Assembly: GCA_900553255.1 (NCBI GenBank)
Contig: USCI01000001.1
Location: forward strand, 12,371-76,370
Reading direction: 5' to 3'
Source of the DNA: an uncultured Oscillospiraceae bacterium
Lineage (GTDB): Bacteria > Bacillota > Clostridia > Oscillospirales > Acutalibacteraceae
Length of the DNA: 64,000 nt
Shown here: positions 9,666-64,000 of the stretch, piece by piece
Layout: each line of letters begins with the position of its first letter
Position numbering within the stretch: position 1 is the stretch's first letter
The notes under the pieces: generated by a model
Told to the model about the DNA's origin: nothing
The model's input: the letters and a program-made list of their open reading frames with translations, nothing else
Database searches by the model: none
Translations under genes and position numbers: made by a program

Positions 9666-9681
9666 ACTATCACCAGACGCT

Positions 9682-9722: not shown

Positions 9723-9756
9723 TTTATGGGAAGGGTGTTTTCTTGCCGGGGAATGG

Positions 9757-41835: not shown

Positions 41836-42726
41836 ATGAACACGTTCCAAAAATCACCCAATAATCCTATCTATGGCAGTAAGAGCACCGGTACTCTTTT
41901 TGATGTTCTGGTACAGAAAGAGGACGGCAGATTCCGCATGGACTTCTCCTGGCGTTCGAAGAAAGCGCTGGCTGTCGCGTTTTCTGATGATGGTAGTCAT
42001 TGGAGTGACCCTCAGATCACACTGCATTGCGATCAGAACACCGGCTGGGAGGATAACAACAACCGCAACTGTGTCGTGCGTATCGGAGACACCTGGCATA
42101 TGTGGTATACAGGACAAGCTCGCGGCTATAGCTTTATCGGCTATGCAAAAAGCGACGACGGTCTGCACTTCATGCGTGTCATCGACGAACCCGTTCTGAT
42201 CTCCGAGCGACTTTGGGAAGGTATGTCAGTCATGAATCCCTGTGTGTTGTATGAGGATGGCATCTTCAAGATGTGGTATGCCGCAGGGGAAACGTATGAG
42301 CCGAACGTTCTTGCCTATGCCGAAAGCCACGACGGCATTCACCGGGAAAAGAGTCGAATCAATCCGATTTTTGTCAGAGAAACGAGCAATGACTATGAAC
42401 AGAACCGCGTCGGCGGCTGTCAGGTTCTCCATGTCGAAGGGCTTGGCTATCTGATGTTCTACATCGGCTATGGTGATATCAACACTGCATGCATCTGTGC
42501 CGCACTTTCTCCCGATGGAAAAACGCAATGGAAGCGCTGCAAAAAGAATCCATTAGTCGTACCCGACATCGGTATGTGGGACGAGCATTCCTGTTATAAG
42601 CCTTCCGCACTGTATGATGAGAATATCGGTGGCTGGCGTATCTGGTATAACGGCCGCAGAAACAGCAACGAATTCATCGGTGAAGCCTTTATGCCTGGAG
42701 ATCTGACCGCAGAGGATTTCGGCTGA
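41836..42726 (+). CDS. five-bladed beta-propeller glycosidase/phosphorylase-like protein (GH130/GH43-type fold)
   Basis: RBS AAGGAGG. Repeated 'W(H/K)MWY(T/A)G'-type blade motifs ('WHMWYTGQA', 'FKMWYAAGE', 'WRIWYNGRR'). No signal peptide. Confidence 0.65.
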   Translation: MNTFQKSPNNPIYGSKSTGTLFDVLVQKEDGRFRMDFSWRSKKALAVAFSDDGSHWSDPQITLHCDQNTGWEDNNNRNCVVRIGDTWHMWYTGQARGYSFIGYAKSDDGLHFMRVIDEPVLISERLWEGMSVMNPCVLYEDGIFKMWYAAGETYEPNVLAYAESHDGIHREKSRINPIFVRETSNDYEQNRVGGCQVLHVEGLGYLMFYIGYGDINTACICAALSPDGKTQWKRCKKNPLVVPDIGMWDEHSCYKPSALYDENIGGWRIWYNGRRNSNEFIGEAFMPGDLTAEDFG

Positions 42727-42779
42727 TTAGAATCCCCGTTACAACATCATTTGTGCAAAAGAAAGGAGATCCGGCGCCA

Positions 42780-46932: not shown

Positions 46933-47059
46933 GCAAACGCCATCCTTTTCGCAGCAGGCCCCTAACCGGAATGTATACGGATTAATTATCGCACAGAGCT
47001 GCCCCGTCCCGCAATGGCCAATTTTTGGATATCGGTAGAGTCTGTTTGGCTTTTTGATT

Positions 47060-47100
47060 TTGTGGACAAATTTGTGCAAATAATCGCCATTGTGGGCAAA
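47060..47100. repeat. three direct repeats TTGTG(G)(A/G)CAAA in the divergent promoter region
   Basis: TTGTGGACAAA (47060-47070), TTGTGCAAA (47072-47080) and TTGTGGGCAAA (47090-47100). Weaker TTGT..AAA copies follow at about 47137-47160. Confidence 0.5.
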
Positions 47101-47234
47101 AAAAACATATTTCAATCAACCCCCGTTTTTGATATGGTTGTTTTGTAAATACGGATTGTTGCCATACCGTTCTGTTTATGATCCGTTTCAAAGGGGTATC
47201 AAATCCCGGCGCCATGAAAAAAGGAGGTCGATTC

Positions 47235-49124: not shown

Positions 49125-49143
49125 GAAAAAGCCTTCACGGTAT

Positions 49144-49413
49144 GAGATAAGCAGGCTCGAACCCGGCCCGCCTTCTCTGGGCAGGACGTCGGCCGTCTGC
49201 GTTTTCGTCCTTGATGGGCGCCAGCCCATCTTCGTTCTCAGCCTTGCCGGACAACGTCCTGCTCCCCAGAGAAGGTCGAAGAATTTCGGAGAGCGGAAGA
49301 AAGGCGGGACAAGGCGCCTGACCGAGGCATGCTGCCGCATGCTAAGGAAAGGCAACGACGGCCGGCTTTTCTTCCGCCGCCGAAATCGTGTCGTGTTCGT
49401 GCCTGCTTATCTT
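49144..49413 (+). other. ~270-nt non-coding element with nested long-range helices (candidate structured RNA or MITE-like element)
   Basis: AGATAAGCAGGC (49145-49156) pairs with GCCTGCTTATCT (49401-49412). CCTTCTCTGGGCAGGACGT (49171-49189) pairs with ACGTCCTGCTCCCCAGAGAAGG (49254-49275). GCGGAAGAAA (49293-49302) pairs with TTTCTTCCGC (49368-49377). Inner hairpins at 49213-49230 and 49328-49343. Confidence 0.55.
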
Positions 49414-49449
49414 AACCAAATCATTCAAACAGAGAGGGGTTCCGATCCG

Positions 49450-50631
49450 ATGGCAAACGATTCTTGGCAGCAGGAGCAATTCGTACTATCCACTTTTCAC
49501 GCAGTGCCTGCCGACGCAGGCGACGAGCTGCCGGCCATTCTCAACGCCTGCAAGGAGGCCGGACTGACCCATGTCGAAACCGCCTTTTCAGCACGGCCTG
49601 CCATCCTGCGGGCACTGGACATCTGCGACGAAATCGGCCTGAAGGTGATCGTGCAGGATCTCGGCTCACTCAGCGGGTTCCAGGATCGCACCACTTCCGC
49701 CGCCACCCCCGAGACGGTGGCCGAGGCGGTAAAAACCTACGGCGCCCACCGGTCGGTGGACGGCTACTACATCTGGGACGAACCGTTTTTCGAGCAGCTG
49801 GACTTTGCCGCCGAAAACACCCGGCTGATCCGGCAGTATGCGCCCGGCAAGCTGCAGCTGATCGCACTGCTGCAGTCCTACAGCCCGGATTATCACTGGG
49901 AAAACGGTCTGTTCCCCCGGTATATTGATACCTTCATCGAGCGTACCGACCCATCCCTTTTATCCTTTGACTATTATGTCTTTGACCATGACGTGGACAA
50001 AGGGGTTTCCCTTGAGGATTCCTACTTGTGGACCGATATGGCGTACATCCGCAAAAAAGCGCTGGAAAACGGCATTCCGTACTGGTACTACCTGCAGCTC
50101 ATCGGCGATATTATCGGGCATCAGCCCGACCGCATTACTCTCGAGCGGGTGCGGGTACAGACCGGCATAGCGCTGGCCTTCGGAGCCTCGGGCATCCAGT
50201 ATTTCAACATCCTCGACGGCATCCTGACCAAACAGGGGGAACGCATGAAGCTGTTCGACCCGGTGGCCGCCCTCAACCGCGAGGTGCTTTCGCTCGGGGA
50301 GGCGCTGTTCGGCAAAAAATCCACCCTCGTTTACCCCTCCGGCAGACTGCTGCACCGCGAATATCTGGACAGCCCGGCCGATTCCCCGCTGGTCGCCGGG
50401 GCGCCGGACGGCCTGTTCATCGGCGAATTTACCGACGAGGCAAGCGATTATCTGCTGGCGGTCAGCCTCGATTACGAACAGCCGCGCACGGGAGAAATCC
50501 GGCTGCGGCAGACACGGCAGGCTGCAGCATTCGACCCGGGCAGCAAAACCTACGGTGCCCCGGAACGCACCGCCGCCCTGGCGTACAATCTGCCGGCCGG
50601 CGGCTATCGTCTGTACCGGTTTGCAAAATAA
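49450..50631 (+). CDS. uncharacterised TIM-barrel-like protein (GH42/clan GH-A-like by eye), cytoplasmic paralog 1 of 3
   Basis: No signal peptide. Blocks shared with the next two genes: 'FVLSTFHAVP', 'GLTHVETAF', 'IGLKVIVQD', 'GYYIWDEPFFEQ', 'LLQSYSPDY', 'LSFDYYVFDHDVDKG', 'IPYWYYLQLIGD', 'GIQYFN'. Confidence 0.8.
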   Translation: MANDSWQQEQFVLSTFHAVPADAGDELPAILNACKEAGLTHVETAFSARPAILRALDICDEIGLKVIVQDLGSLSGFQDRTTSAATPETVAEAVKTYGAHRSVDGYYIWDEPFFEQLDFAAENTRLIRQYAPGKLQLIALLQSYSPDYHWENGLFPRYIDTFIERTDPSLLSFDYYVFDHDVDKGVSLEDSYLWTDMAYIRKKALENGIPYWYYLQLIGDIIGHQPDRITLERVRVQTGIALAFGASGIQYFNILDGILTKQGERMKLFDPVAALNREVLSLGEALFGKKSTLVYPSGRLLHREYLDSPADSPLVAGAPDGLFIGEFTDEASDYLLAVSLDYEQPRTGEIRLRQTRQAAAFDPGSKTYGAPERTAALAYNLPAGGYRLYRFAK

Positions 50632-50643
50632 GGAGGAGAGGCA

Positions 50644-52134
50644 ATGCACGGCAAAAAACGTCTGGCCGGCGCAGCGGCGCTGGCAATCGGCGCGGCCTGT
50701 CTGCTCAGCCCGGCCGCACTCGCCGAGGAGACCCCCAGATACCAGCAGGAGGAATTTGTTATTTCCACCTTCCACGGCGTACCCTCGATGCCTAACGGTT
50801 TTTACAACGAGGTGATGTTCGCCCTCAAGGAGGTGGGGATGACCCATTTGGAGACCGCCTTCACCTCTCCGGAGGGAAGTGAGATGGCTCTTCAGATCGC
50901 AGAGGAGCTGGGCCTGAAGGTCATTGTGCAGGATACCAACCTTTACGGCGGTTTCCAGAACCAGACCATCCCTCCCACCACCGAGGAGGACATCCTCAAA
51001 GTGATCGAGAAATACGCCCAGTACGAGTCCTTCGGCGGTTACTACGTCTGGGATGAGCCGTTTCTTGAACAGCTCGACGACGTAAAAAAGAACATGGACT
51101 GGATACAGAAGCATGATCCCGGCAAGCTGCGGCTGGTGGCACTGCTGCAGTCCTACAGCCCCACCTACTGGTGGCCCAACGGCACCTTCAAGGAATACAT
51201 TGACACCTATGTCGACAAGATTGATCCCGACCATCTGTCCTTCGACTATTACGTGTTCGATGCCGATGTGGATAACGGTACCCCGCTTAAGGATTCCTAC
51301 ATGTGGATGGACATGGCGTATATCCGCAAAAAAGCCCTTGAGCGCGATATCCCGTACTGGTATTACCTGCAGATCCTCGACGATGTGGCGAATCCCAACA
51401 TCAATCCCCAGCCCATGACCCGCGGGCGCATCAGTTTCCAGGTATACACCGCCATGGCGTACGGTGCAACCGGCATCCAGTATTTCAACACCATGGACAG
51501 CATTGTGGACGATTACGGGCGGCGTCTGGACAAATTCGACATCCTCAAGTCCATTAACAGTGAAATCCATAACCTCGGCCCGACCCTGATGGAGCTGACC
51601 TCCACCGTGATTTACCCCACCATTGATCTCGCACGCCACGAATATATCGGCTCCCTGGAGGAGGATGCCACGCTGGTCGCTTCCGCACCGGGGGACATGT
51701 TCTTCGGCGAGTTCAAGGATGACGACGGCAACGACTACCTGCTGCCGGTCAACTGCGATTACGACAACCCGAAAGCCGGCACCATCACCCTTAAAGGGCG
51801 CTGGGATGTCTACGAGCTGGACGCGGCCACCGGCGAAACCAAGCTGAAGGCAGCGGACACCGACACGATCGAGATCGATTATGTTGAGGGCGGCGGCGCA
51901 CTGTACGCACTGCGGCCGGTTGGCGCGGACTTCCCGGTTCTGCCCGGGACCGGGGAGCCGGCAGCACCGGATAATCCGTCGTCGGACGGCCCGTCCTCCG
52001 ACACGGCATCCAACGGGGAAACAGACAACGGGCTGATGACCGTACTGCTGATCGTCGGCGGCATCGTGGCAGCCGGCCTGGTGATCATCGGGGTGATCAT
52101 GGTGGTGAAGCTGCGGCGCCCGGTTAAGAAATGA
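50644..52134 (+). CDS. same family, paralog 2: signal peptide and C-terminal Pro/Ser/Asp linker + TM anchor
   Basis: RBS AAGGAGGAG. 'AALAEE' signal cleavage-like site. The same conserved blocks. C-terminus 'LPGTGEPAAPDNPSSDG..LMTVLLIVGGIVAAGLVIIGVIMVVKLRR'. Confidence 0.85.
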   Translation: MHGKKRLAGAAALAIGAACLLSPAALAEETPRYQQEEFVISTFHGVPSMPNGFYNEVMFALKEVGMTHLETAFTSPEGSEMALQIAEELGLKVIVQDTNLYGGFQNQTIPPTTEEDILKVIEKYAQYESFGGYYVWDEPFLEQLDDVKKNMDWIQKHDPGKLRLVALLQSYSPTYWWPNGTFKEYIDTYVDKIDPDHLSFDYYVFDADVDNGTPLKDSYMWMDMAYIRKKALERDIPYWYYLQILDDVANPNINPQPMTRGRISFQVYTAMAYGATGIQYFNTMDSIVDDYGRRLDKFDILKSINSEIHNLGPTLMELTSTVIYPTIDLARHEYIGSLEEDATLVASAPGDMFFGEFKDDDGNDYLLPVNCDYDNPKAGTITLKGRWDVYELDAATGETKLKAADTDTIEIDYVEGGGALYALRPVGADFPVLPGTGEPAAPDNPSSDGPSSDTASNGETDNGLMTVLLIVGGIVAAGLVIIGVIMVVKLRRPVKK

Positions 52135-52144
52135 GGTCGTGTTC

Positions 52145-53683
52145 ATGAAAAAAGCAATCAAACGCCCTCTGGCGCTGGCGGCTGCGCTGTGTATCTCCGG
52201 TTCCGCCTGCGCGGCATCGCCGGCCGAAGCGCTGCCCGCACCGGCAGGCGAAACGCTTGTCCAGACCGATTTCGTCATCTCCACCTTTCATTGTGTTCCC
52301 GGCGGCCTCACCCCGGAATACCCTCAGCTTCTCACCCTGGCCAAGGAGGCGGGGCTGACCCACGTGGAAACCACCTTCACCGCGCCTTCCGCCAGCCAGA
52401 CAGTGCTGGACATCGCGGAACAGATCGGGTTAAAGGTGATCGTACAGGACTACACCCGCTTCGGCGGGTTCCAGAACTGGCCCGACCGCATCGCCGCCAC
52501 CACCGAGGACAGCGCAAAAGAAGCGGTGGAAATGTTCGATTCCCCGGCCCTGGCCGGCTATTACATCTGGGATGAACCGTTTCTTGAGCAGTTTGAACAG
52601 GTACGTCAGGACATCGGTATCATGGACCGGTTGGATCCCGGAAAAATCCAGCTGGTAACCATGCTGCAGAGCTACAGCCCCGACTACACCTGGGACAACG
52701 GCATGTACAAAACATACCTTGACCGCTATATGGCCGAGGTGCGGCCTCCGCTGCTGGTATTCGACTACTACGTCTTCGACCATGATGTGGATAAGGGGGT
52801 CGGCCTGTACGACTCCGCAATGTGGAAGGATATGGGCTATATCCGCCTGAAGGCTAAGGAGGCGGATATCCCCTACTGGTTCTATATCCAGCTCATCGGG
52901 GACATTCCCAACAACACGCCCGGCACCATGACCGTCCCCCGCGTCGCGGTGCAGGATTATATTTCGCTGGCGTTCGGGGTGTCCGGTATCTCCTACTACA
53001 ACGCCATCGAGGGCATTTTTGACGACAAGGGCAACAAAAACCATCTGTATGACGGGGTGGCTGCCCTCAACCGGGATATTCTGACGCTCGGCCGGGCGCT
53101 GCTCGGCGCGGAATCCACCCTGGTCTACCATACCTCCCCACTGCAGCATGACGATTATCTTGACCAGTTGGGGGACTCCGAAACGGTGGAAGCGGCGCCG
53201 GCCGACCTGTTTATCGGCGAGTTCAACGCCCCGGACGGCGGGCAGTATCTGCTGCCGGTAAATACCGATTATGAAAAGGAACGCAGCGGAAGCATCCGGC
53301 TGAAAGCGTCAAAAACCGTGTACCGCATCGACAAAGCCACCGGACAGCCGGTGCTCGTTGCCGAAAGCACCGATGCCATCGACTACCAGATGGCGGCAGG
53401 CGAAGGCGAGCTGTACTGGCTGACCGATCTGCCCTCCGATCCGCCGCCGGTTGTCCCGACCGGTGACCAACCCGCCGCAAGCGAACCGGATTCCCCGGCT
53501 GAAACCGGCGGATCCGAAAGCGGCATCCCATCAACCGGTACGGAACCAGGCGCCTCTCCCCCCATTGGGCTGATTGCCGCACTGGTGCTTGGCGGCGCCG
53601 TCCTGCTCGGCGGTGCCGGGATCGTCTGTGCGTATCTTTACCGACGGAAAACCATGAACAAAAGAAAGGAGCCACCGCAATGA
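52145..53683 (+). CDS. same family, paralog 3: signal peptide and C-terminal linker + TM anchor
   Basis: ATG 52145 after GAGG. The same conserved blocks. C-terminus 'IPSTGTEPGASPPIGLIAALVLGGAVLLGGAGIVCAYLYRRK'. Confidence 0.85.
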   Translation: MKKAIKRPLALAAALCISGSACAASPAEALPAPAGETLVQTDFVISTFHCVPGGLTPEYPQLLTLAKEAGLTHVETTFTAPSASQTVLDIAEQIGLKVIVQDYTRFGGFQNWPDRIAATTEDSAKEAVEMFDSPALAGYYIWDEPFLEQFEQVRQDIGIMDRLDPGKIQLVTMLQSYSPDYTWDNGMYKTYLDRYMAEVRPPLLVFDYYVFDHDVDKGVGLYDSAMWKDMGYIRLKAKEADIPYWFYIQLIGDIPNNTPGTMTVPRVAVQDYISLAFGVSGISYYNAIEGIFDDKGNKNHLYDGVAALNRDILTLGRALLGAESTLVYHTSPLQHDDYLDQLGDSETVEAAPADLFIGEFNAPDGGQYLLPVNTDYEKERSGSIRLKASKTVYRIDKATGQPVLVAESTDAIDYQMAAGEGELYWLTDLPSDPPPVVPTGDQPAASEPDSPAETGGSESGIPSTGTEPGASPPIGLIAALVLGGAVLLGGAGIVCAYLYRRKTMNKRKEPPQ

Positions 53684-55287
53684 AAACCATGAAAGCACGT
53701 CTTCTCGCCCTGGCCGCCTGCGCGGCGATGACCATCGGCCTGGCTGCCGGCTGCAGCCCCTCGGACCCCGCCGGCTCCGGCGGTGCCGTGGACACCGAAA
53801 ATCCCGACCTGGCCGCCTTCCCTGTTTCGGAGGAAACCATCAATCTCAAGGTGGTGCTCAAGACCAACCCGGTCAACGGCGACATCGAGAGCATGTGGTT
53901 CTGGGAAGAAATGGAAAGGCTGAGCAATATCCATTTCGAGGTGCAGGCGATCGACATGGCTACCTTCCACGACCGCAAGGCACTGATGATCATGTCCGAA
54001 CAGCTGCCGGATATGTTTCTGGGCTATGCCGAATTTGATTCCGGCGAGGTGCTCAAATACGGCAACGAGGGCGTGTTTATCGACCTGCAGGATTATGTGG
54101 CCGATATGCCGAACCTGCAGAAGGTACTGGCTACCGGCGGAAACAACACCCTGAAAACGGTGACCGCGCCGAGCGGGCAGATTTATTCGCTGCCCTGCTT
54201 CAACACCCGCGGCAATCCCGACACCGGCACCCGCGCCTTTATCAATACCCAGTGGCTGGAAAATCTGGGACTGGAGATGCCCACCACCCTGTCCGAGCTG
54301 CACGACGTACTGGTCGCTTTCCGCGACCGCGACCCGGACGGTGACGGCGTCAACAACACCATCCCCTTCTCCGCAGTGGGCTGGAACTTCGTCGAGCTGT
54401 TCAAGCATGCCTACGGCTATGTTTCCGACTTTGATGTCAAGGACGGCAAGATTTCCTATTTCCCGCTGACGCCGGAATATGTGGACTACTATGATACCCT
54501 CAACCGCTTCTACACCGAAAACCTGATCGACCACGAATTCTACACCCAGTCGGACGATCAGTTCAAGGCCAAGGCGCAGGCAATGAAGGTTGGTATGTTC
54601 GTCTATTCCTCGATCGATATCGCGGTGGGCGATGACGAGGAGAAATGGTCCCAGTATGAGGCGTTCATGCCGGTCAAGGCGGACGAGAATACCGAAGCCA
54701 CCTGGAGCCTGCTCGACGGTGTCTATCCCCACGCCGCAATCCTTACCAAGGCCAACCAGCATGTGGAGGAATCGCTCAAATTCCTGGATTTCCTGTACAC
54801 CGACACCGGCACCACCATGCTGCGCAACGGCCCGGAAAAAGGCAAATGGTCGGGTGAAGGCGGCTGGTACTACAACGAAAACGGCGAAGTGGAAATTGAA
54901 CCGTCGCCGGAGTTCACCAACTCCTGGGAATACATCAACGCTGTGACGCCCGCCATCAACATCCTGCCCTGCTGGATGCCGTCTGCCACGATGGAAAAGG
55001 GCAAGGGTACCCCGAAGGACGATTATCTCACCGAGCAGCTGGCACGGTATGAGGACGTGGGCCGCTATATCCTGCCGGAGGTCATGTACACCGAAGAAGA
55101 GGCCGCCCGCATCAACGAAATCTGGCCGTATCTGGAGGCATATGTCGGCGGCCAGGTAGGCAACCTGATTATCGGTGTCAAGGCGGTGGAGGAAATCCCC
55201 GCCATGCAGGAGCAGATGCGCAAAATCGGTGCGGAGGAGCTTCTTCAGATCCGGCAGGCGGCCTACGACCGCTACCTGAACAGCTGA
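53680..55287 (+). CDS. extracellular solute-binding lipoprotein (LplA-type, family 1)
   Basis: ATGA overlap with the previous gene. Lipobox 'LAAGCS'. About 510-aa SBP body typical of LplA-like oligosaccharide binders. Confidence 0.85.
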   Translation: MKTMKARLLALAACAAMTIGLAAGCSPSDPAGSGGAVDTENPDLAAFPVSEETINLKVVLKTNPVNGDIESMWFWEEMERLSNIHFEVQAIDMATFHDRKALMIMSEQLPDMFLGYAEFDSGEVLKYGNEGVFIDLQDYVADMPNLQKVLATGGNNTLKTVTAPSGQIYSLPCFNTRGNPDTGTRAFINTQWLENLGLEMPTTLSELHDVLVAFRDRDPDGDGVNNTIPFSAVGWNFVELFKHAYGYVSDFDVKDGKISYFPLTPEYVDYYDTLNRFYTENLIDHEFYTQSDDQFKAKAQAMKVGMFVYSSIDIAVGDDEEKWSQYEAFMPVKADENTEATWSLLDGVYPHAAILTKANQHVEESLKFLDFLYTDTGTTMLRNGPEKGKWSGEGGWYYNENGEVEIEPSPEFTNSWEYINAVTPAINILPCWMPSATMEKGKGTPKDDYLTEQLARYEDVGRYILPEVMYTEEEAARINEIWPYLEAYVGGQVGNLIIGVKAVEEIPAMQEQMRKIGAEELLQIRQAAYDRYLNS

Positions 55288-55392: not shown

Positions 55393-55418
55393 GTCGGCAC
55401 GAGAGGATGATCTACATA

Positions 55419-58340
55419 ATGAGAGCACCGAGGAACAGGCTAAGAAAAGCCATTGCCCTGCTGGCAGCGGCGCTGACGGCTGTTTCACTGTCCGCCGGGT
55501 ATACTGCGCTCGCCGGTGCCGGCGGCAAGCCGCTCCGGGAAGAGTTTATTTCCGGGGATGAGGGGGAGTCGGTCGATTTCGTCAACCAGCTTGAGCAGCC
55601 GTACTACCGCACCGTGCGGGAGGAGTACACCGCTAAGGGCTATACCCCCGCTGAAGCGGAGGATATCGTACTGCCGCCTTCGCACCTTTCGGAAACGCTC
55701 ACGGAACAGCTGGGAGAAACCGCCTTTCACTGGACCGGGGAGGACGAAGAGGTCAGCTGGACCTTCACCATCGAGCAGGCGGGGCTGTATGAAATCCGCC
55801 TCGACTACCTCGTGGCAGAGGGCGGGGTCAATCCCGCGCGGCGTTCGATCACTGTTGATGGTGAGACCCCCTTCTTTGAATGCAGCGGCTTGTATTTCTA
55901 CCGGCTGTGGGAGGATGACGGCGAGCCGATTGTCAACAGCCTCGGCGACGAAATCAAACCGCGTCAAAAGGAGGTCCGCCGCTGGCAGTCGGTTTCTCTG
56001 GAGGACGGGCACGGGTTTTACGCTGAACCGTTCGCCTTCTACTTCACCCCCGGCGAGCACACCCTGACGATGGCCTACGTCGAGGAGGATATGTATATCG
56101 GGGATTTGACCGTCACGCCTCAGCGGGTAATTCCCCCGTACAGCGAAGTGGCGGCAGAATACGAGGCAAAGGGCTACCAGCCCGCGGCTGCCGCGGACGG
56201 CGGAATATTCCAGGCAGAGCTGACCGCCGTGGAAAAGTCCGATCAGACCCTGCGCCGGGAGAGCGACACCGATCCGGCCACGCAGCCGTCCAGTCCGTCC
56301 GAACGCCGGCTCAACATGATGGGCGGAGTCGGCTGGGCCAAGGGCAATCAAACCATCACATGGTCCTTTGAGGTGAAGCAGGACGGGTTGTATACCCTGT
56401 CGCTGCGGTATGGGCAGATCTGGCTCAACGGCCTGCCCTCCTACCGCCGCATCGCCATCGACGGTGAGGTGCCGTTCGCCGAGCTGCTCGATTACCGTTT
56501 CGATTACGGCTCCGGCTGGCAGGCCGAAACCCTCAGCGACAGTGAAGGGAATCCTTTTCAGTTTTACCTCACCGCCGGGAAGCACACCCTGTCGATGACC
56601 GTAAAATTCGGAGAGATCACCGAAGTGGTGCAATCGCTCAATGAGGACTCCATCCGGATGTCCAACATCATGCTGGATCTGCTGCGCATCACCGGCAATG
56701 ATCCGGATCCGAATTACGATTACGAATTTTTCACCGCGATCCCGGGCCTCGAGGATACGCTGCGGCAACTGTCCGCGAGCCTGGACGAAAAATACCAGCA
56801 GCTTGTGGATATCTGCGGCGGGGACGTGCCCGGCTTTGCCAACTCCCTGAAGGCCACCCGCATCCAGATCGACGAGCTGATCGAGGATCCTTTCCTCATC
56901 GCCCGGCGCATGGACGATCTGACCACCATTCAGTCGAATCTGGGCAGCTGGTATATGGAGTTCCAGACCCAGCCGATTATGATCGACTATTTTGAGGTCG
57001 GCAGCGCCGACACCCCCTTTGTCATGCGCAAATCCAACATACTGGAAAAGATCCAATACATGATGATCAGCCTGGCGGTATCCTTCGTTAAGGATTACGA
57101 CTCGGTCGGCTCGGTAGCCGACAACAGCGCCGTGATTACCGACAACATCACCGTCTGGATTGCACGCGGCAACGAGTGGGCCAGCCTGATCAAGGAGCTG
57201 GCCGACCAGCAGTTCACCCCCGCCACCGGCATCAACGTCAACATCAACATCATGCCGGCTTCCCAGCTCAATGCCGGTGCGGTCAACGCGCTGATGCTGT
57301 CGATCACCTCCGGCAAAGCGCCGGACGCAGCGATGGGCGTGGATCCCGGCTCCCCGGTGGAATTCGCCATCCGCGATGCCGTGGTGGATCTGTCGTCCCT
57401 GCCGGGGTTTGACGAAACGGTCGCTCCCCGGTTCATCGAACAATGCCTGGTGCCGTTTACCTACCGCGGTGGGATTTACGCGCTGCCCGAAACGATGGAT
57501 TTCCGGGTGCTGATCTACCGCAAGGATATTGTTGCCAAGCTGGGACTGACCCTGCCGGATACCCGGCAGGATCTGTACGACACCGTGCTGCCGGCGCTGT
57601 ATCAAAACGGCATGAATTTTTACTACCCCCGTGACGATTCCCAGTTTGTCTACCAGCACGGTGCCGCTTTCTACACGGAGGACGGCCTGCGTTCCGGGCT
57701 GGACACCCCCGAGGCATACCAGGCCTTCAAGGAATCCACCGAGCTGTACACCAACTACGGCATCCCGGTGACCGCCAACTTCTACAACCGCTTCCGCAGC
57801 GGCGAGATGCCGATGGGCATCGGCTCATTCACCGATTATATCCAGATCAGCGTGGCCGCCCCGGAGCTGTCCGGCAAATGGGGAATCGCTCCGCTGCCCG
57901 GCATTGAGCGGGAAGACGGCAGCGTGGACCGCTCGGTCGGCAGCATCACCGGCCAGTGCAGCCTGATCATGAGCCAGACCGACAAGGTCGATGCGGCATG
58001 GCAGTTCCTGCAGTGGTGGACCGAGGCACAGACCCAGACCGATTTCGGCCGGGAGATCGAGGCGCTGCTGGGCAGCTCCGCCCGCTGGAATTCGGCAAAT
58101 GTGGAGGCGTTCTGCAACATGCCCTGGCCGCAGGAGGACCTCGCGGTCATTCAGGAGATGTGGCCGTTCTACCGGGAGGTACCGGTGGTGCTGGGCGGCT
58201 ATTTCACCGGCCGGCATCTCAACAACGCCTGGAACAATGTCGTCATCGGCGGCGAACCGCTGCGGGACAGCTTGGAAGAGGCGGTCAAGGAAATCAACCG
58301 CGAGCTTTCGATGAAGCAGCGCGAATACGGCGTGACCTGA
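55419..58340 (+). CDS. large extracellular protein: two tandem CBM-like beta-sandwich repeats fused to an ABC solute-binding domain
   Basis: Signal/anchor 'AIALLAAALTAVSL'. Internal repeat 'VSWTFTIEQAGLYEIRLDY..RRSITVDGETPF..FTPGEHTLTM' versus 'ITWSFEVKQDGLYTLSLRY..YRRIAIDGEVPF..LTAGKHTLSM'. The C-terminal ~430 aa are SBP-like. Confidence 0.75.
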   Translation: MRAPRNRLRKAIALLAAALTAVSLSAGYTALAGAGGKPLREEFISGDEGESVDFVNQLEQPYYRTVREEYTAKGYTPAEAEDIVLPPSHLSETLTEQLGETAFHWTGEDEEVSWTFTIEQAGLYEIRLDYLVAEGGVNPARRSITVDGETPFFECSGLYFYRLWEDDGEPIVNSLGDEIKPRQKEVRRWQSVSLEDGHGFYAEPFAFYFTPGEHTLTMAYVEEDMYIGDLTVTPQRVIPPYSEVAAEYEAKGYQPAAAADGGIFQAELTAVEKSDQTLRRESDTDPATQPSSPSERRLNMMGGVGWAKGNQTITWSFEVKQDGLYTLSLRYGQIWLNGLPSYRRIAIDGEVPFAELLDYRFDYGSGWQAETLSDSEGNPFQFYLTAGKHTLSMTVKFGEITEVVQSLNEDSIRMSNIMLDLLRITGNDPDPNYDYEFFTAIPGLEDTLRQLSASLDEKYQQLVDICGGDVPGFANSLKATRIQIDELIEDPFLIARRMDDLTTIQSNLGSWYMEFQTQPIMIDYFEVGSADTPFVMRKSNILEKIQYMMISLAVSFVKDYDSVGSVADNSAVITDNITVWIARGNEWASLIKELADQQFTPATGINVNINIMPASQLNAGAVNALMLSITSGKAPDAAMGVDPGSPVEFAIRDAVVDLSSLPGFDETVAPRFIEQCLVPFTYRGGIYALPETMDFRVLIYRKDIVAKLGLTLPDTRQDLYDTVLPALYQNGMNFYYPRDDSQFVYQHGAAFYTEDGLRSGLDTPEAYQAFKESTELYTNYGIPVTANFYNRFRSGEMPMGIGSFTDYIQISVAAPELSGKWGIAPLPGIEREDGSVDRSVGSITGQCSLIMSQTDKVDAAWQFLQWWTEAQTQTDFGREIEALLGSSARWNSANVEAFCNMPWPQEDLAVIQEMWPFYREVPVVLGGYFTGRHLNNAWNNVVIGGEPLRDSLEEAVKEINRELSMKQREYGVT

Positions 58341-58353: not shown

Positions 58354-59250
58354 GTGAAGGCAATCACCAAAAAACGCTTTATGCGTGAATATCGCTACGG
58401 CTATATCTTTTTGGCGCCGTTTCTGATCCTCTTTTTTGTGTTTATGGTCATACCGATATTCGTCGCCTTTTTTCTGAGCTTCACCAACTATAACATGCTC
58501 CAGTCGCCGGTATTCACCGGCATTGAGAACTATAAGATGCTGCTGCTCGACGACAAGGTGTTTCTCACCGCGCTCAAAAACACCCTGATCTTTGCGCTGA
58601 TTACCGGGCCGGTGGGGTATTTCTGCTCCTTTATCTTCGCCTGGGTAATCAACGAGCTGCGCTTCCGCACCGTGTTCGCGCTGGCGTTTTATGCGCCCTC
58701 GATCACCAACGGCATCGCCATGTCGGTCATCTGGCTGTATTTCTTCTCCGGAGACCGCTACGGCATGATCAACAACGTCCTGATTAACATCGGTATCATC
58801 AGCGAACCAATCCAGTGGACCATGGACGCCAACTACATTCTCGGTGTGGTTATCTTCATCTCGATATGGATGAGCATGGGCACCGGCTTCCTGGTTTTCC
58901 TGGCCGGATTCCAGAATATCAACAAGGAATACTACGAGGCCGGAGCCATCGACGGCATCCGCAACAAGACCCAGGAGCTCCGCCTGCTGACCCTGCCCAT
59001 GATGAAGCCGCAGCTGCTATTCGGCGCGATCAACGCGCTGGTCAACTCATTCGGGGTGTTCGACGTCGCGGTGTCGGTAGCCGGCATGCCAAGCCCCAAC
59101 TATGCTGCGCACACCATTGTGGCGCATCTGTACGATTACGCATTCATCCGCTTCCAGATGGGATATGCCTCGGCGGTTGCCATGGTGTTGTTCCTGATCA
59201 CCTTTGTGATCGGCCGCGGATTCATGAAGCTGCTGAGCAGCGACGACTGA
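58354..59250 (+). CDS. sugar ABC transporter permease (LplB/MalF-like)
   Basis: AGGAGG 7 nt before GTG 58354. EAA loop 'YYEAGAIDGIRNKTQELRLLTLPMMKP'. Confidence 0.9.
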   Translation: MKAITKKRFMREYRYGYIFLAPFLILFFVFMVIPIFVAFFLSFTNYNMLQSPVFTGIENYKMLLLDDKVFLTALKNTLIFALITGPVGYFCSFIFAWVINELRFRTVFALAFYAPSITNGIAMSVIWLYFFSGDRYGMINNVLINIGIISEPIQWTMDANYILGVVIFISIWMSMGTGFLVFLAGFQNINKEYYEAGAIDGIRNKTQELRLLTLPMMKPQLLFGAINALVNSFGVFDVAVSVAGMPSPNYAAHTIVAHLYDYAFIRFQMGYASAVAMVLFLITFVIGRGFMKLLSSDD

Positions 59251-59254: not shown

Positions 59255-60172
59255 GTGGTACGGTTGGCTGAGCTTCAACGGGCAAAACGGATACGCACAC
59301 ATGCGCCGCTTCGCCGGCGCGTACATAAGATCCGTGCCCCCTGGGTAATCGTCTACATCCTGATGATCCTGCTGGTCTGCTTCACGGCACTGCCTCTGGT
59401 ATACATGGTAAACACCGCATTCAAGCCCATGCAGGAATTATTTGTATTCCCGCCCAACTTTTTTGTACGCAATCCCACCACCAAGAACTTTGTCGACCTG
59501 GTGGTGGTTATGGGCAGCTCGACGGTGCCGTTTATCCGCAACGTGGTCAACAGCATCATTGTTTCGGTTTCCATCGTATTTCTGACGGTGATGGTGTCCA
59601 CCACCGGCGCCTACGGCCTGGTCAAATTCCATATTCCCGGCCGCAAGCTGATTTTCAATATCGTGGTGGCCTCCCTGATGTTCTCCCCTCATGTGACCCA
59701 GATCCCCCGTTACCTGGTGGTCAACGGCCTGGGCATGATCAACCACTATTCGGCGCTGATCCTGCCGGCGGTGGCGAGCAGCTACAACTTTTTCCTGATG
59801 AAGCAGTTTGTCGAGCAGTTCCCGAACGAGCTGCTCGAAGCGGGACGCATCGACGGCTGCGGGGAATACCGCATGTTTTTCAAGCTGGTAATGCCGGCCC
59901 TCCGTCCAGCATGGTGCACGCTGGTCGTTTTCTCCTTTGTATCCAGCTGGAACGACTATTTCACCCCGCTGATCTACGTGACCAGTCAGGCAATGAAGAC
60001 GCTGCCGCTGGCGCTGCAGACCATCGCGGGCGGTGCCGCGGCACAGAGCATTTCACGCGCCGGGGCAGTAGCGGCCGCCACACTTCTGATGACCCTGCCT
60101 ACCATCGTCATTTTCACCGCCATGCAGAAAAACGTAATGGAAACGATGACCTACTCCGGCATAAAGGGGTGA
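59255..60172 (+). CDS. carbohydrate ABC transporter permease (LplC/MalG-like)
   Basis: EAA loop 'LLEAGRIDGCGEYRMFFKLVMPALRPAW'. Paralog of the gene at 2..586. The start may be TTG 59264, which has better RBS spacing. Confidence 0.9.
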   Translation: MVRLAELQRAKRIRTHAPLRRRVHKIRAPWVIVYILMILLVCFTALPLVYMVNTAFKPMQELFVFPPNFFVRNPTTKNFVDLVVVMGSSTVPFIRNVVNSIIVSVSIVFLTVMVSTTGAYGLVKFHIPGRKLIFNIVVASLMFSPHVTQIPRYLVVNGLGMINHYSALILPAVASSYNFFLMKQFVEQFPNELLEAGRIDGCGEYRMFFKLVMPALRPAWCTLVVFSFVSSWNDYFTPLIYVTSQAMKTLPLALQTIAGGAAAQSISRAGAVAAATLLMTLPTIVIFTAMQKNVMETMTYSGIKG

Positions 60173-60182: not shown

Positions 60183-62303
60183 ATGAAAATCCAAAAAGTC
60201 CTTGCGCTCCTCCTCACGGCGGTGCTGCCTGTTATGGCGGCGCTGCCTGCCGGTGCGGCCAGCGACCAGTTCACGCTGGAGGATAACGAGCGCATCCCAA
60301 TCCCGGAGGCCTATACCCTTGAGAGAACCCTCTCCGGTTTCACGGCCGACGGGCAGCAACAGCAATTTAGCGGCATACTGGACATCTTCATAGATGAAGG
60401 CGGCACGCTGTACGTCAGCGATACCGCGAACAACCGCGTGGTCCGGCTGGATGCCGACGGCAACTGCACCGGCGTTTTCACCGGCGACGAGAAGGGCTTC
60501 AGCAATCCGGACGGCCTGTTTGTCGACGATACCGGCGATATATTCGTCGCCGATACCGGCAACAAGCGGATTGTGCATCTGGATAAAAACGGCGGGTTTA
60601 TCGAGGAATTCGGCAAGCCGGAATCCGAGCTCCTGGACGAAAACTTCGATTACCGCCCGTCCAAGATCTGCGTCAGCGATACAGGCTATATTTATGTCAT
60701 CAAAGAGCAGGCGATTATGCAGCTGGATTCCCTCAACCGGTTCCGCGGCTATATCGGCCAGCCGGAAGTTGGCTTTAGCTTCACCGATTTTCTGCTGCGC
60801 ATCTTTGCTTCCGAAAATCAAAGCCGGCTCATTGAGAAACGGCTGCCGGCAACCTATTCCAACATCCTTCTGGATCAGGAGGGCAACCTGTTCGCCGTAT
60901 CGCGGGACACCACCGACGGCGAAATCAAGCAGCTCAACTCCATCGGCAAAAACATCTACCGCGAATATGCCGAAGGCAACGTGATCACCAGCACCATAAT
61001 GAGCTTCCTGAGCCTGGAAGGGACCATGCAGTGGTTCGGCGAACGGACCGATCCGGCGGGCAATCCACGCGTCCCTACTTTCAGCGATATCGCGGTGGAC
61101 AGCAACGGCGTGGTGACGGTTCTGGATTCCGGCAACCTGCAGCTGTATCAGTACGACCCGGAGGGACAGCTGCTGTGTTCGTTCGGCGGCCAGGGGACAA
61201 GGCGCGGGAAATTCTCCTCCCCGACCTCTATCGCAGTCGGGCCGGACGGCCGCATCTATGTGGCCGACCGTACCCAGAACAACATCCAGGTATTCGCCCC
61301 CACCGCCTTCATCCAAAGTGTGCACGAGGCGGTGGCCGCCTACGCTGACGGCGACTATGAGAAAGCGTTTACCTGCTGGCAGGCGGTGCTGAGCATCGAC
61401 GAAAACTACCGCTTTGCCCACGACGGCATCGCCGATACCCTATACAAGCGCGGCCAGTACAGCGAAGCGATGGACGAATATGTCATCGCCGAAAACCGCG
61501 AGGGCTACACCAAAGCGTTCAACGAACACCGCATGGAGCTGTTCAAGCAATATTTCGTGCTGATTATCCTGTGCATCCTCGCCATCGCTGCGGCGGTATG
61601 GTTTTTCGGCCGCTGGCTGCTGCACGCCGGCAGGCGGGCACAGCACCGCTTTCTCTTCAAGGAAGAGGGCCGGAACAGGCTCGGCAACTTCCTGCTGCTG
61701 GCACCTGCCATGATGACCAGGCCCAGCGACACGGTGGAAGCCGTCAAGGAAAACCGCGGCCATAACCGGATGCTTCCGGGGATACTGGTCATACTCGCCG
61801 CACTCGCTTCACGGCTCATATACATTTTCATTGTGCATTTCCCGCTCATGGACGTCTCTCCGCAGAACGTCAACCTGGTGCTGGAGGTGCTCAAGATGGT
61901 GCTGCCGGTTGTCACCTGGGCGGTTGCCTCTTATGCGGTATCCTCCATCATGGGCGGCGAAGCGCGCTTCGACGAGGTTTTCCTGTGCGCGTCGTTCGGC
62001 ATGATCCCCTATGTGATGTTTACTCTGCCGATGGGCCTTGTCTCCAACGTACTCGCCCACGGCGAACAGCAATTTTATGCCATCGCCACCATTATTGTGT
62101 TCGTCTGGCAGATCGTGCTGATGTTCATCGGATTGATGCAACTCAACCGTTACGGCTTCTGGCAGGCGGTAGGCGTCGGCATCATCAGCCTGCTGGTCAT
62201 GCTGCTGTTCTGGGTGGTGGCTATCCTGTGTTTCGGCCTGATCGGCCAGCTTATCCGCTTTGCGGACGGTCTGATCACCGAAATCCGCCTGAATTCGCTA
62301 TAG
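60183..62303 (+). CDS. membrane protein: signal peptide + NHL-repeat propeller + TPR-like + Yip1-like multi-TM domain (paralog of 602..2710)
   Basis: 'LYVSDTANNRVVRLD', 'IFVADTGNKRIVHLD' and 'IYVADRTQNNIQVF' NHL motifs. 'YADGDYEKAFTCWQAVL'. About 6 C-terminal TM helices. Confidence 0.85.
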   Translation: MKIQKVLALLLTAVLPVMAALPAGAASDQFTLEDNERIPIPEAYTLERTLSGFTADGQQQQFSGILDIFIDEGGTLYVSDTANNRVVRLDADGNCTGVFTGDEKGFSNPDGLFVDDTGDIFVADTGNKRIVHLDKNGGFIEEFGKPESELLDENFDYRPSKICVSDTGYIYVIKEQAIMQLDSLNRFRGYIGQPEVGFSFTDFLLRIFASENQSRLIEKRLPATYSNILLDQEGNLFAVSRDTTDGEIKQLNSIGKNIYREYAEGNVITSTIMSFLSLEGTMQWFGERTDPAGNPRVPTFSDIAVDSNGVVTVLDSGNLQLYQYDPEGQLLCSFGGQGTRRGKFSSPTSIAVGPDGRIYVADRTQNNIQVFAPTAFIQSVHEAVAAYADGDYEKAFTCWQAVLSIDENYRFAHDGIADTLYKRGQYSEAMDEYVIAENREGYTKAFNEHRMELFKQYFVLIILCILAIAAAVWFFGRWLLHAGRRAQHRFLFKEEGRNRLGNFLLLAPAMMTRPSDTVEAVKENRGHNRMLPGILVILAALASRLIYIFIVHFPLMDVSPQNVNLVLEVLKMVLPVVTWAVASYAVSSIMGGEARFDEVFLCASFGMIPYVMFTLPMGLVSNVLAHGEQQFYAIATIIVFVWQIVLMFIGLMQLNRYGFWQAVGVGIISLLVMLLFWVVAILCFGLIGQLIRFADGLITEIRLNSL

Positions 62304-62316
62304 GAGGGATGCGGAT

Positions 62317-64000
62317 ATGTTATACAAACGATTTCTGGCCGCTGCGCTGGCGCTGTGCTGCCTGGCGCTGACCTCCTGTGCGGGAAAGGCTGTTCCTCAG
62401 CGCACCCTTACCTCCGGTGAAGCACGCCTGGTGACGGTGGCCAGCGACCCGGTGTCGCTCGATGCCCCCGACCGCCTCGCCGACACCTATGAACGGGTGA
62501 CCGATGGCGGGAGTGTGGCTCTCTACCTTGACCGGGAAGCCTGTACCATCGGGGTTTTCGACAAACGAAGCGGCGCCTTCTGGCGGGCGGCGGTCGATCC
62601 TGCTGCCGTGGACGCCGAAAAGATCAACCGGCTTTGGCTGAACTACATGAACTCCATGCTGTCCATCCGTGCCACCAAGGCTGACGACGAACAGGCGCAG
62701 GTGCAGCGCTACGATTCCGCCGACGAGGATATGACCCGCTCGGTACAGGAAGAGGACGGCCGTCTTCTGTTCACCGTCACCTTTGGGCGCACCGGTATTA
62801 CGGCGGGGATGGAGGTATCTCTCGAAGACGACCAGCTGTGCGTGCGCGTCCCGCAGGACAGCATCCGGGAGGAAGGCGAATACCGGCTGGTTTCCCTTGA
62901 GGTCATGCCCTTTTTCGGCGCCGCAGGCGCGATGGAGGACAGCTACATCCTCATCCCGGACGGCTGCGGCGCACTGATGCATTTTCTGCCGGGGACACAG
63001 CGGGTAAACGCGCAGACCTACTATTTCCCGGTGTATTCCTCCCACGATTCCTCGGTGGATGTCCATCTTAACCGGGAAGTCCAGGCAGAACCCTACCTGC
63101 CGCTGCCGGTGTACGGCATCAAGCAGCAGGATAGTGCGGTGCTTGGCTTTATCACGGAGGGGGAAGCGGACGCCGAGCTGGCGGTCACCCCGGAAAGCAC
63201 TGCTGTGGCGCTCAACCGCGCCGGCTTCCAGTTCAAATACCGGTATTCCTACAACCTGCTCACCAGCAACATCGGCCTGGCGGACGACAACAGCATGAAA
63301 AGCCTGTCCGGTTCCACCACGTCGGCGCTCTCGGTGGCGTTTGAAGAGGAACTGCGCCGTCAGGACCGGGAGCTGCGTTTCGCTTTCCTGCAGGGTGAAT
63401 CCGCCAATTACTCCGGTATGGCCAACGTCTATCGCAACTATCTCGCCCAGGCCGGACTGCTCAATACGGCTGCCGCCCGGCGGCCGGCGCTGTCGCTGGA
63501 GTTCTTCTGCGGCATCCTGGAGCCCAACCTGTTTTTCGACACCTTTGTGCCGATGACGGACTTCGAGCAGGCCGCCGCCATGCTGGAACAGCTTGGGGGC
63601 GAGGGAGTATCCGGCATTGACGTTACTCTCAACGGCTGGGCAAAAAACGGCTACGGCGTGTATCCGCCGAAGCTGTCGCCGGACAGCCGGCTGGGCGGAA
63701 AAAATGCGCTTGAGGCCCTCGCCGGGACAGTGACCGGACAGCAGGGGCGGCTTTTCCTGCAGACCGAGCCGATGCTGTATGACACCTCCGGCGGCGGCTT
63801 TATCTCCCGCGGCGATGTGCTTACCCTCAAGACCGGCGTGCCGGTTGCTGACAGCGCCGGTACTCTGCAGGTATTCAACCTGCAGGTAGCGGCCGAGCGC
63901 ATGCTGGCCATGCGCACCCAGATCGCCGCCTTCGACGGCGCCGGCCTGCGTCTGACCCATACGGCAATGGTCTTCAACGATTACAACCAGAAACGGCCGA
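62317..64000 (+). CDS. DUF5696-like lipoprotein (paralog of 2730..4991), 3' end outside the window; absent from the ORF track
   Basis: My own translation from ATG 62317: MLYKRFLAAALALCCLALTSCAGK... (lipobox LTSC), open to the window end. Shares 'FFGAAGAMEDSYILIPDGCGALMHF' and later blocks with the left copy. The track's minus ORF 62320..63960 is its antisense artefact. Confidence 0.8.
   Translation, partial: MLYKRFLAAALALCCLALTSCAGKAVPQRTLTSGEARLVTVASDPVSLDAPDRLADTYERVTDGGSVALYLDREACTIGVFDKRSGAFWRAAVDPAAVDAEKINRLWLNYMNSMLSIRATKADDEQAQVQRYDSADEDMTRSVQEEDGRLLFTVTFGRTGITAGMEVSLEDDQLCVRVPQDSIREEGEYRLVSLEVMPFFGAAGAMEDSYILIPDGCGALMHFLPGTQRVNAQTYYFPVYSSHDSSVDVHLNREVQAEPYLPLPVYGIKQQDSAVLGFITEGEADAELAVTPESTAVALNRAGFQFKYRYSYNLLTSNIGLADDNSMKSLSGSTTSALSVAFEEELRRQDRELRFAFLQGESANYSGMANVYRNYLAQAGLLNTAAARRPALSLEFFCGILEPNLFFDTFVPMTDFEQAAAMLEQLGGEGVSGIDVTLNGWAKNGYGVYPPKLSPDSRLGGKNALEALAGTVTGQQGRLFLQTEPMLYDTSGGGFISRGDVLTLKTGVPVADSAGTLQVFNLQVAAERMLAMRTQIAAFDGAGLRLTHTAMVFNDYNQKRP

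Follow-up and report, generated by a model that had tools for sequence, protein, structure and literature searches.

The 64,000-nucleotide stretch of DNA from an uncultured Oscillospiraceae bacterium analyzed here (hereafter the window) carries at its two ends strongly diverged copies of one module of seven genes. In order, these encode a giant solute-binding protein (SBP), permeases 1 and 2, a protein combining NHL, TPR and Yip1 domains (NHL/TPR/Yip1), a DUF5696 protein, and permeases 3 and 4. The module appears to be a fixed operon that is widespread in Firmicutes and apparently undescribed. We consider it probable that it is a conserved core for the capture, trimming and import of glycans in gram-positive polysaccharide utilization loci (gpPUL). 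Oscillospiraceae, Ruminococcus and Lachnospiraceae are major degraders of fiber in the gut, and their capture and import of polymers are far less understood than those of Bacteroides. The module also holds two families without an assigned role, DUF5696 and, in sugar import, Yip1.

Two diverged copies of a widespread seven-gene module

The original prediction placed the gene order permease, NHL/TPR/Yip1, DUF5696 at both ends of the window, and coordinates and Pfam domain calls agree on this order. All module genes of the window lie on the plus strand. The left copy begins within permease 2 (2..586), of which the C-terminal 194 amino acids (aa) are present, ending in AGIKE before the stop codon (BPD_transp_1, E 3.4e-11). 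The start of this gene lies left of the window. It is followed by the genes for NHL/TPR/Yip1 (602..2710, 702 aa), recognized by Pfam matches to Yip1 (46 bits), SGL and TPR_16 and by hydropathy; DUF5696 (2730..4991, 753 aa; Pfam E 7.5e-162, a lipoprotein-like signal and a GH129-like fold); permease 3 (4993..5898, 301 aa; BPD_transp_1, EAA loop present); and permease 4 (5914..6936, 340 aa; BPD_transp_1 E 9e-15, EAA-like loop DAAYIDG). The right copy comprises the genes for the giant SBP (55407..58340, 977 aa; SBP_bac_1 at residues 603-886), permease 1 (58354..59250, 298 aa; BPD_transp_1, EAA loop present), permease 2 (59255..60172; BPD_transp_1, ending in SGIKG), NHL/TPR/Yip1 (60183..62303, 706 aa; NHL 75 bits, Yip1 48 bits, TPR_2) and DUF5696 (62317..>64000). 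Right permease 2 has 305 aa when read from the GTG at 59255, and starts at ATG 59363 (269 aa) in public gene calls. Right DUF5696 starts at ATG 62317 and, as predicted, leaves the window, which holds the first 561 of its 756 aa (Pfam E 1.7e-80; lipobox LTSC). The 546-aa open reading frame (ORF) listed on the opposite strand (62320..63960, minus) had been taken for an antisense artifact. It is one: the DUF5696 match sits in the plus frame, and at the window's G+C content of about 60% long antisense ORFs are common.

The right DUF5696 gene was completed, and both loci were extended, from public human-gut contigs found by exact-protein look-ups (L001 for the right locus, L005 for the left), which are 99.6-100% identical to the window. 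On L001, the full DUF5696 gene (L001:12135-14405) is followed by permeases 3 and 4. On L005, the full left permease 2 gene encodes 308 aa (L005:9059-9985) and the giant SBP has 943 aa. In an all-against-all BLASTP comparison, each of the seven genes paired with its positional counterpart in the other locus. The two NHL/TPR/Yip1 proteins share 26% identity over 713 columns (E 2e-74) in a full-length alignment that is collinear through the propeller, the TPR part and all transmembrane helices. For DUF5696, identity is 31% over 397 aa with the right copy as cut by the window (E 2e-33) and 28% over 749 aa with the completed one (E 6e-54). The copies share 42-43% identity in permease 2 (E 2e-55), 34% in the giant SBP, 46% in permease 1, 36% in permease 3 (27% between left permease 3 and right permease 1) and 40% in permease 4. 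Since every gene pairs with its positional counterpart, and permeases 1 and 3, like permeases 2 and 4, are only about 25% identical to each other, the seven collinear genes are paralogous as a block.

Pairwise alignment of the three protein pairs of the original prediction (26%, 28-31% and 43% identity, with a common domain order) thus agrees with its description of two sets that are clearly homologous and strongly diverged, with identities of 26-46% overall and a similarity far beyond chance or composition. The prediction was right to couple these three components and too narrow in its extent, as the unit on L001 and L005 comprises seven genes. There is next to no chance that the likeness of the window ends is trivial, produced by generic NHL, TPR or hydrophobic composition or by a recent local repeat. 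NHL and TPR repeats can match spuriously, and the left NHL match scores 18.1 bits against a cut-off of 20; but similarity limited to generic NHL or transmembrane composition, the finding named beforehand as speaking against homology, is not what the full-length collinear match (E 2e-74) shows, the DUF5696 match (E 6e-54) is free of repeats, and five further genes pair by position. A recent repeat is excluded by the identities of 26-46%.

Genes of the unit are 4-15 nucleotides apart or overlap. The sole strong hairpin (14-bp stem with 10 G-C pairs; L001:16202-16233) is found directly after permease 4, between its end and the end of a convergent AraC gene, and is likely a two-way terminator. This tight packing, with the only strong hairpin after permease 4, indicates that the seven genes form one predicted operon.

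To describe its distribution, a DUF5696 alignment was scanned against one genome per bacterial species (185,579 species genomes). Results comprised at least 590 DUF5696-matching stretches, and we examined the best 80 of these relatives, a set chosen by similarity to the left copy by way of a single peptide pattern and therefore biased towards the left subtype. Window proteins were mapped onto all ORFs of the 80 loci. The seven-gene order on one strand was kept in all 64 complete loci; 16 more were consistent with it and cut by contig ends, so that no violation was found among the 80. Carriers include Oscillospiraceae, Ruminococcus (R. callidus ATCC 27760 and R. flavefaciens), Lachnospiraceae/Acetatifactor and many Paenibacillus. 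Two loci each were found in Candidatus Avimonas caecicola and MGYG-HGUT-04159. The best DUF5696 match among the species-representative genomes, a set from which the window's own species is absent, is 37% identical. Three loci fetched through relatives of the right-copy proteins (L092, L093 and L094) keep the seven-gene order as well. The families themselves are large. In a full HMMER scan the DUF5696 profile matched 7,448 clusters at 50% identity (E <= 0.001), 4,182 of them at E <= 1e-30; searches with NHL/Yip1 and the giant SBP gave hundreds of relatives of matching length, and 649 homologues of the right NHL/TPR/Yip1 protein were found.

Some loci deviate in size or in taxonomic label. In eight loci from Oscillospiraceae/Ruminococcaceae (L030, L016, L023, L025, L029, L031, L034 and L045) the module is longer, with 14-15 kb compared with the usual 11 kb. 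On L030, two extra ORFs lie between permeases 3 and 4 (L030:13116-15784), encoding proteins of 344 aa (weak Podoplanin-like match) and 521 aa (no family). The second SBP there is followed by DUF4838 proteins. The giant SBP of the complete module on L092 (P0269) is named Dictyoglomaceae by NCBI, a label which suggests that the module has spread beyond Bacillota. Another complete module, on L086, comes from a metagenome-assembled genome labelled 'uncultured Alistipes sp.' (Bacteroidota), an assignment that is more likely a binning error.

The two copies are much older than this genome. Each is nearer to relatives in other Clostridia and in Paenibacillaceae than to the other window copy. All seven proteins score nearer the right copy on L093 and L094 and nearer the left copy on L089 and L091, with L092 intermediate. 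Right-type NHL/Yip1 proteins include members from Paenibacillaceae, Cohnella and Lachnospiraceae, and left-type DUF5696 proteins include members from Paenibacillus and Oscillospiraceae; each subtype therefore spans Bacilli and Clostridia. A duplication specific to this genome or lineage was discarded, since other families, Paenibacillaceae included, hold closer relatives of each copy. The window copies are thus ancient paralogous modules with a very old split, or one of them was acquired horizontally. As to the old duplication originally proposed in place of a recent repeat, the ancient divergence stands (26-46% identity) and the duplication within this genome does not, the subtypes being shared with Paenibacillaceae.

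The seven genes also vary together. When distance matrices were computed for each of the seven components over 70 modules, they correlated pairwise with r 0.90-0.97, and where one genome holds paralogous modules, these are far apart in every one of the seven genes. Together with the order kept in 80/80 loci, this is in line with the functional coupling of components that had been proposed. Between left and right, the p-distance reaches 0.74 in NHL/TPR/Yip1 and 0.73 in DUF5696, compared with 0.68 in the giant SBP and 0.57-0.65 in the permeases. Divergence is fastest in the extracellular parts, as expected if they contact the substrate.

Predicted properties of the module proteins

The NHL/TPR/Yip1 protein consists of a signal peptide, an extracellular NHL propeller with TPR repeats, one transmembrane helix, a short cytoplasmic linker and a five-helix Yip1 domain. 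Both copies score well above the Yip1 (PF04893) gathering score of 28.6 bits (46.2 bits on the left, 48.3 on the right), over profile positions 2-172 of 173. The right copy reaches 75 bits for NHL against a cut-off of 20, and its propeller is six-bladed, with PDB sequence matches to Pizza, TRIM71 and PknD at E down to 1e-42. Taken alone, the left NHL region stays below the cut-off, at 18.1 bits; it aligns with the right copy across the whole propeller. Conserved residues are spread over all three parts of the protein. In the related loci, NHL-TPR and Yip1 are encoded by one gene in 16 cases and by two adjacent genes in 60, calls that rest on ORFs, and 37 of 39 short NHL-TPR proteins end in a transmembrane helix. 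This pattern of fusion and fission implies that the two parts interact and probably work together. NCBI names one member of an NHL/TPR/Yip1 cluster 'YIP1 family protein'. Literature searches pairing Yip1 with sugar ABC (ATP-binding cassette) transporters, NHL/solute-binding or polysaccharide utilization yielded no description of the module, and those combining 'YIP1 family protein' with 'ABC transporter permease' returned bacteriocin or unrelated papers only.

The DUF5696 protein is assigned by Pfam (PF18952) with 540 bits on the left and 272 bits for the cut right copy, against a gathering score of 25.6. The right copy spans profile positions 7-355 of 612, a partial coverage due to the end of the window. 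An AlphaFold2 model (34 sequences) has a predicted local distance difference test score (pLDDT) of 89 and a predicted template modeling score (pTM) of 0.89. It consists of an N-terminal beta-sandwich, an intact (beta/alpha)8 barrel and a C-terminal beta-sandwich, the same order as in solved structures of glycoside hydrolase (GH) family GH129. A Foldseek search of the PDB placed ZgGH129 first (5opq/8rzk, E 6e-31 to 3e-30, TMt 0.68-0.70), with NagBb 5wzn at E 9e-26; overall template modeling scores of the GH129 matches were 0.6-0.7, and GH101, GH36, GH31 and GH97 followed. At the sequence level, a single DUF5696 sequence gave only a marginal GH129 match in the PDB (E 0.08). The family profile matched ZgGH129 at E 2.8e-10 in three short collinear pieces, which omit the catalytic half of the barrel, and identity is 13-16%. 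DUF5696 is thus a distant relative of GH129 and not a member of it.

The strongest motif of the family lies in the N-terminal domain, where D207 within PDGSG is present in 34/34 sequences. Three further acidic positions, D550 (30/34), D608 (26/34) and 609 (25/34 with Asp or Glu), are conserved and are the candidates for the catalytic nucleophile and acid/base residues of GH129, which lie at the beta4 and beta6 ends of the barrel. Both window copies keep D207, D550, D608 and the acidic residue at 609, the right copy as PDGCG, VFNDY and EDEDVPF. Both also carry lipobox-like signals; in the family, a hydrophobic N-terminus is found in 190/195 and a lipobox-like motif in 53/195 proteins, signal and lipobox calls being based on simple rules. 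DUF5696 is therefore predicted to be an extracytoplasmic, membrane-tethered, distantly GH129-like protein, for which catalysis is plausible. A literature search for 'DUF5696' found no paper in the library searched, and in NCBIfam neither DUF5696 nor the giant SBP nor the other SBPs have a model.

The giant SBP was modeled with a pLDDT of 88. In the model, a helix at the N-terminus (residues 9-33) is followed by two beta-sandwich domains (about 85-240 and 265-400), then by a helical stalk (402-519) and lastly by a MalE-like domain (524-977), whose best Foldseek matches are binders of sophoro-, cycloisomalto-, malto- and cello-oligosaccharides. In the family, 109/117 proteins have a hydrophobic N-terminus and 8/117 a lipobox-like motif; judging from these sequences, the giant SBP is not a lipoprotein. 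All permeases match BPD_transp_1, in some cases with less than its gathering score (26.4 bits), and EAA-like loops are present in six of the eight permeases of the two modules. Among NCBIfam models, UgpA/UgpE, GlcT/GlcU and MalF/MalG score best, each short of its equivalog cut-off. The permeases, labelled LplBC-type in the original prediction, thus resemble UgpAE and MalFG, and the assignment supported is the general one as CUT1-type. The cognate SBP expected of a CUT1 importer is available in the giant SBP and in two ordinary SBPs (53680..55287 and 6970..8811). A second SBP beside the module was detected by phmmer in 41/80 related loci. No gene for a cognate ATPase of the MalK/MsmK type was found in either module or in the related loci inspected. 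Within the window, ORFs with a Walker A motif occur only near 29621 and 35424, far from the modules, and LSGGQ occurs nowhere.

Genes surrounding the module

Related loci place the module among genes of glycan catabolism and its regulation. In Paenibacillus sp. LHD-117, a histidine kinase and an AraC-type response regulator precede the module, and an SBP, three GH32 genes (one also matching GH43 models) and a fructokinase follow it. A PL11 rhamnogalacturonan lyase and a GH2 protein are encoded on L094, two BNR proteins and a DHDPS-family lyase on L093, and a GH53 protein near the module on L092. A Pfam census of 103 downstream ORFs counted SBP (14), GH32 (13), DUF4838 (11), GH43 (7), GDSL esterases (3), GH53 (2), and GH10, GH5 and alginate lyase (1 each). 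Among 100 upstream ORFs, the census gave AraC-type helix-turn-helix domains (15), response regulators (9), SBP (8) and LacI-type regulators (5). In 5-7 loci, the giant SBP gene is closely preceded by genes for an ABC_tran protein and an ABC-2 membrane protein of the exporter type.

These catabolic and regulatory neighbors present the module as a constant core placed in loci of the gpPUL type. Related loci with GH32, PL11, GH43, GH53 or GH10 clearly fit the definition of a gpPUL (Sheridan et al. 2016, PMC5320581). In the two window loci, the transport system and AraC regulators of that definition are both present, and enzymes are represented by GH-like folds or domains only (DUF5696, DUF4855 and ADP_ribosyl_GH). 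The neighbors here are poorly characterized: DUF4855/F5_F8_type_C, CBM11, the ADP-ribosylglycohydrolase family and genes without a family. Both window loci may serve glycan substrates.

An AraC regulator and an ADP-ribosylglycohydrolase-family gene accompany both loci. On L005, the left unit is preceded by two DUF4855 proteins and an AraC regulator. Permease 4 is followed by a second solute-binding lipoprotein with a C-terminal CBM11 (6970..8811, plus strand, 613 aa; SBP_bac_8 and CBM_11), the ADP-ribosylglycohydrolase-family gene (8829..9665, plus; Pfam ADP_ribosyl_GH) and aspS. In the right locus, an AraC-family regulator of 818 aa (44656..47115, minus; HTH_18 and HTH_AraC) is divergent from the operon. 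It is followed by four genes without a Pfam family at E <= 0.001 (47178..53683, plus) and by an ordinary solute-binding lipoprotein of 535 aa (53680..55287, plus; SBP_bac_1, lipobox-like motif AAGC), which also precedes the unit on L001. A convergent AraC gene and an ADP-ribosylglycohydrolase-family gene lie after permease 4 on L001.

The ADP-ribosylglycohydrolase family is unusual for a glycan locus. Its proteins lack signal peptides at both modules (8829..9665 and L001:17146-18717, minus) and share 50% identity, more than the two copies of any module gene. The family was also found at a related gut locus (L089:17588-19552), and none was detected in the other 80 loci. The left gene is shortened in the window strain, encoding 278 aa compared with 518 aa on L005 (L005:18331-19887), through an internal deletion of 962 bp. 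Contig L006 carries the same deletion and is 100% identical to the window over 8701..10100. The deletion, a strain polymorphism, probably inactivates the enzyme.

Of the four familyless genes at 47178..53683, the last three are paralogues; two share the motif FVISTFH, and the members of 496 and 512 aa have signal-like starts. Homologues lie upstream of the module on L089. For these four genes, and for genes encoding 288 and 560 aa on L001, no convincing Pfam or PDB match was found even at E <= 1, and the four have no NCBIfam match. Faint matches to DUF4434 and GH15 within this set were rejected as not credible. Possibly, 47178..53683 encodes new enzymes that act on glycans.

The right locus is bordered on its left side by an AraC gene (40806..41741, minus), a gene without Pfam match (41800..42726) and an MGH1-like glycoside hydrolase gene (42753..44129), which may be another small sugar locus. 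A protein of 868 aa with a Lamin Tail Domain and a choice-of-anchor I domain (15347..17953, plus) adjoins gatA/gatB and is unrelated to the module.

Proposed role and comparison with known systems

If the module is a core for glycan capture, trimming and import, its tethered extracellular parts would hold the glycan at the membrane. The giant SBP, tethered by its helix, could contribute two CBM-like beta-sandwich domains, a stalk and MalE-like oligosaccharide binding. DUF5696 would trim the glycan or hand it over, and two CUT1-type permease heterodimers would import the products, powered by a shared MsmK-type ATPase encoded elsewhere. By analogy with YknW for YknXYZ, the Yip1 domain may dock the extracellular parts to the permeases. 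Substrate specificity would come from the fast-evolving extracellular parts and the variable surrounding enzymes, which could explain why a genome keeps several diverged copies, one per glycan. We propose more tentatively, and with less belief than doubt, that the seven products form a single membrane supercomplex, with Yip1-bridged importers topped by the giant SBP, an NHL/TPR platform and a GH129-derived feeder. If so, the supercomplex would be the gram-positive functional counterpart of the SusC/D machine and would give a bacterial Yip1 domain its first assigned role in nutrient import, and DUF5696 would be the founding member of a new glycoside hydrolase family, or else the first protein of glycosidase fold to serve an ABC importer as substrate receptor. 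Should the module act as one machine, it would offer genome annotation a recognizable marker of gram-positive glycan loci and make DUF5696 a candidate new glycosidase family, and the role of bacterial Yip1 would be directly testable in culturable Paenibacillus spp. and in Ruminococcus callidus ATCC 27760.

Several points weigh against a core for glycan capture, trimming and import. The whole argument is computational, and the structures are predictions. The correlations between distance matrices partly reflect organismal descent. Given the sampling of loci through the left copy and one pattern, DUF5696 proteins of greater divergence may be encoded outside modules of this kind. The module has no ATPase gene, so energization in trans is assumed; transporters of this type in Firmicutes usually rely on a shared ATPase encoded at another site. 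The candidate catalytic residues of DUF5696 are not invariant, the L092 protein lacking two of them. Finally, DUF5696 is constant across loci whose apparent substrates are fructan, pectin, xylan and sialoglycan-like, which is odd for a substrate-specific glycosidase.

The last two points also bear on the main alternative, to which we give a smaller though appreciable chance: that DUF5696 is non-enzymatic, a GH129-derived receptor for the second permease pair, with NHL/TPR/Yip1 tethering or regulating the hand-over. A receptor would fit the place of DUF5696, directly upstream of and overlapping permeases 3 and 4, which is the usual position of an SBP, and the 39/80 loci in which phmmer detected no second SBP. 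It would also fit the constancy of the module across loci with chemically unrelated enzymes, the variation of the candidate catalytic residues, and the HMMER alignment of the DUF5696 profile with ZgGH129, which leaves the catalytic half of the barrel unaligned. However, D207 is invariant, D550 is kept in 30/34 sequences and the barrel is intact and confidently modeled; a second SBP may have been missed by the phmmer queries or be encoded further away; and we know of no glycosidase-fold protein acting as the receptor of an ABC importer.

Export, sensing and artifact all fit the data poorly. It is improbable that the module serves the export or assembly of a cell-surface glycan, or the remodeling of the cell's own envelope, in place of nutrient import. 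YknWXYZ, the only bacterial Yip1 partner to have been characterized, does export, a constant self-structure as target would account for the constancy of a GH-like protein, and in 5-7 loci the module has ABC-2 exporter genes upstream; yet the permeases are of the type I importer kind, with EAA loops and dedicated SBPs, and the neighbors are catabolic (GH32 with fructokinase, PL11 with GH2, GH43, GH53, GH10). The adjoining regulators are those of sugar catabolism (AraC, LacI, and pairs of histidine kinase and AraC-type response regulator), and glycosyltransferase, flippase and polymerase families are absent among the flank families listed. We give a similarly slight chance to NHL/TPR/Yip1 being mainly a sensor outside the transport machinery, which reports extracellular glycan to the AraC or two-component regulators. 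NHL propellers do act as extracellular sensor domains, for example in PknD (PDB 1rwi, one of the matches), and regulators nearly always adjoin the module. Against a sensor, the protein has no recognizable cytoplasmic signaling domain, with some 30 cytoplasmic residues between the first helix and Yip1; its gene always lies between the permease pairs, away from the regulator; and the type of regulator varies between loci while NHL/Yip1 is constant.

Among known systems, the single experimental precedent for the Yip1 part is YknW, a member of the Yip1 family which modulates the assembly of the YknXYZ ABC transporter complex in Bacillus (PMC4887032). Both are bacterial membrane proteins with a Yip1 domain encoded together with an ABC transporter, and YknW is needed by its transporter. 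However, YknYZ belongs to the MacB-type exporters and has a membrane fusion protein, whereas the partners in the window are type I importer permeases with SBPs; YknW lacks the NHL/TPR ectodomain of the window proteins, and the Yip1-permease association in the window is a proposed one. In the module, no membrane fusion protein, FtsX/MacB permease or ATPase was found, so that Yip1 is all it has in common with a YknWXYZ-type transporter. DUF5696 shares its fold order with GH129, represented by the alpha-N-acetylgalactosaminidase NagBb (5wzn) and the 3,6-anhydro-D-galactosidase ZgGH129 (5opq/8rzk), and GH101, GH36 and GH31 are more distant fold relatives. Unlike GH129, it is predicted to be membrane-tethered, is in the loci examined always encoded inside an ABC transporter operon and has its strongest motif in the N-terminal domain.

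With the Sus-like systems of Bacteroidota (SusC/SusD, surface glycan-binding proteins and glycosidases), the module shares only a similar logic: a constant core for capture and import, with a surface binding protein and a surface enzyme, is reused in many paralogous loci that differ in their substrate-specific enzymes and regulators. There is no homology between them; outer membrane, TonB-dependent transporter and SusD are all lacking, and ABC import across the cytoplasmic membrane would take their place. The component superfamilies are known, as is the gpPUL with an ABC importer as a type of locus. Like the gpPUL built on CUT1 importers of the MalEFG/UgpBAE/LplABC type, the loci described here combine a regulator, an SBP, ABC permeases and glycan enzymes. 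They are also alike in having the ATPase outside the locus, an SBP with the fold of oligosaccharide binders, and several diverged copies per genome with different enzymes. What appears undescribed is the seven-gene architecture itself. It differs from a gpPUL in having two permease heterodimers in one operon, a helix-anchored SBP of about 950-980 aa with two extra beta-sandwich domains and a stalk, and two constant accessory proteins, the Yip1-anchored NHL/TPR propeller and the GH129-like DUF5696, fixed between the permease pairs.

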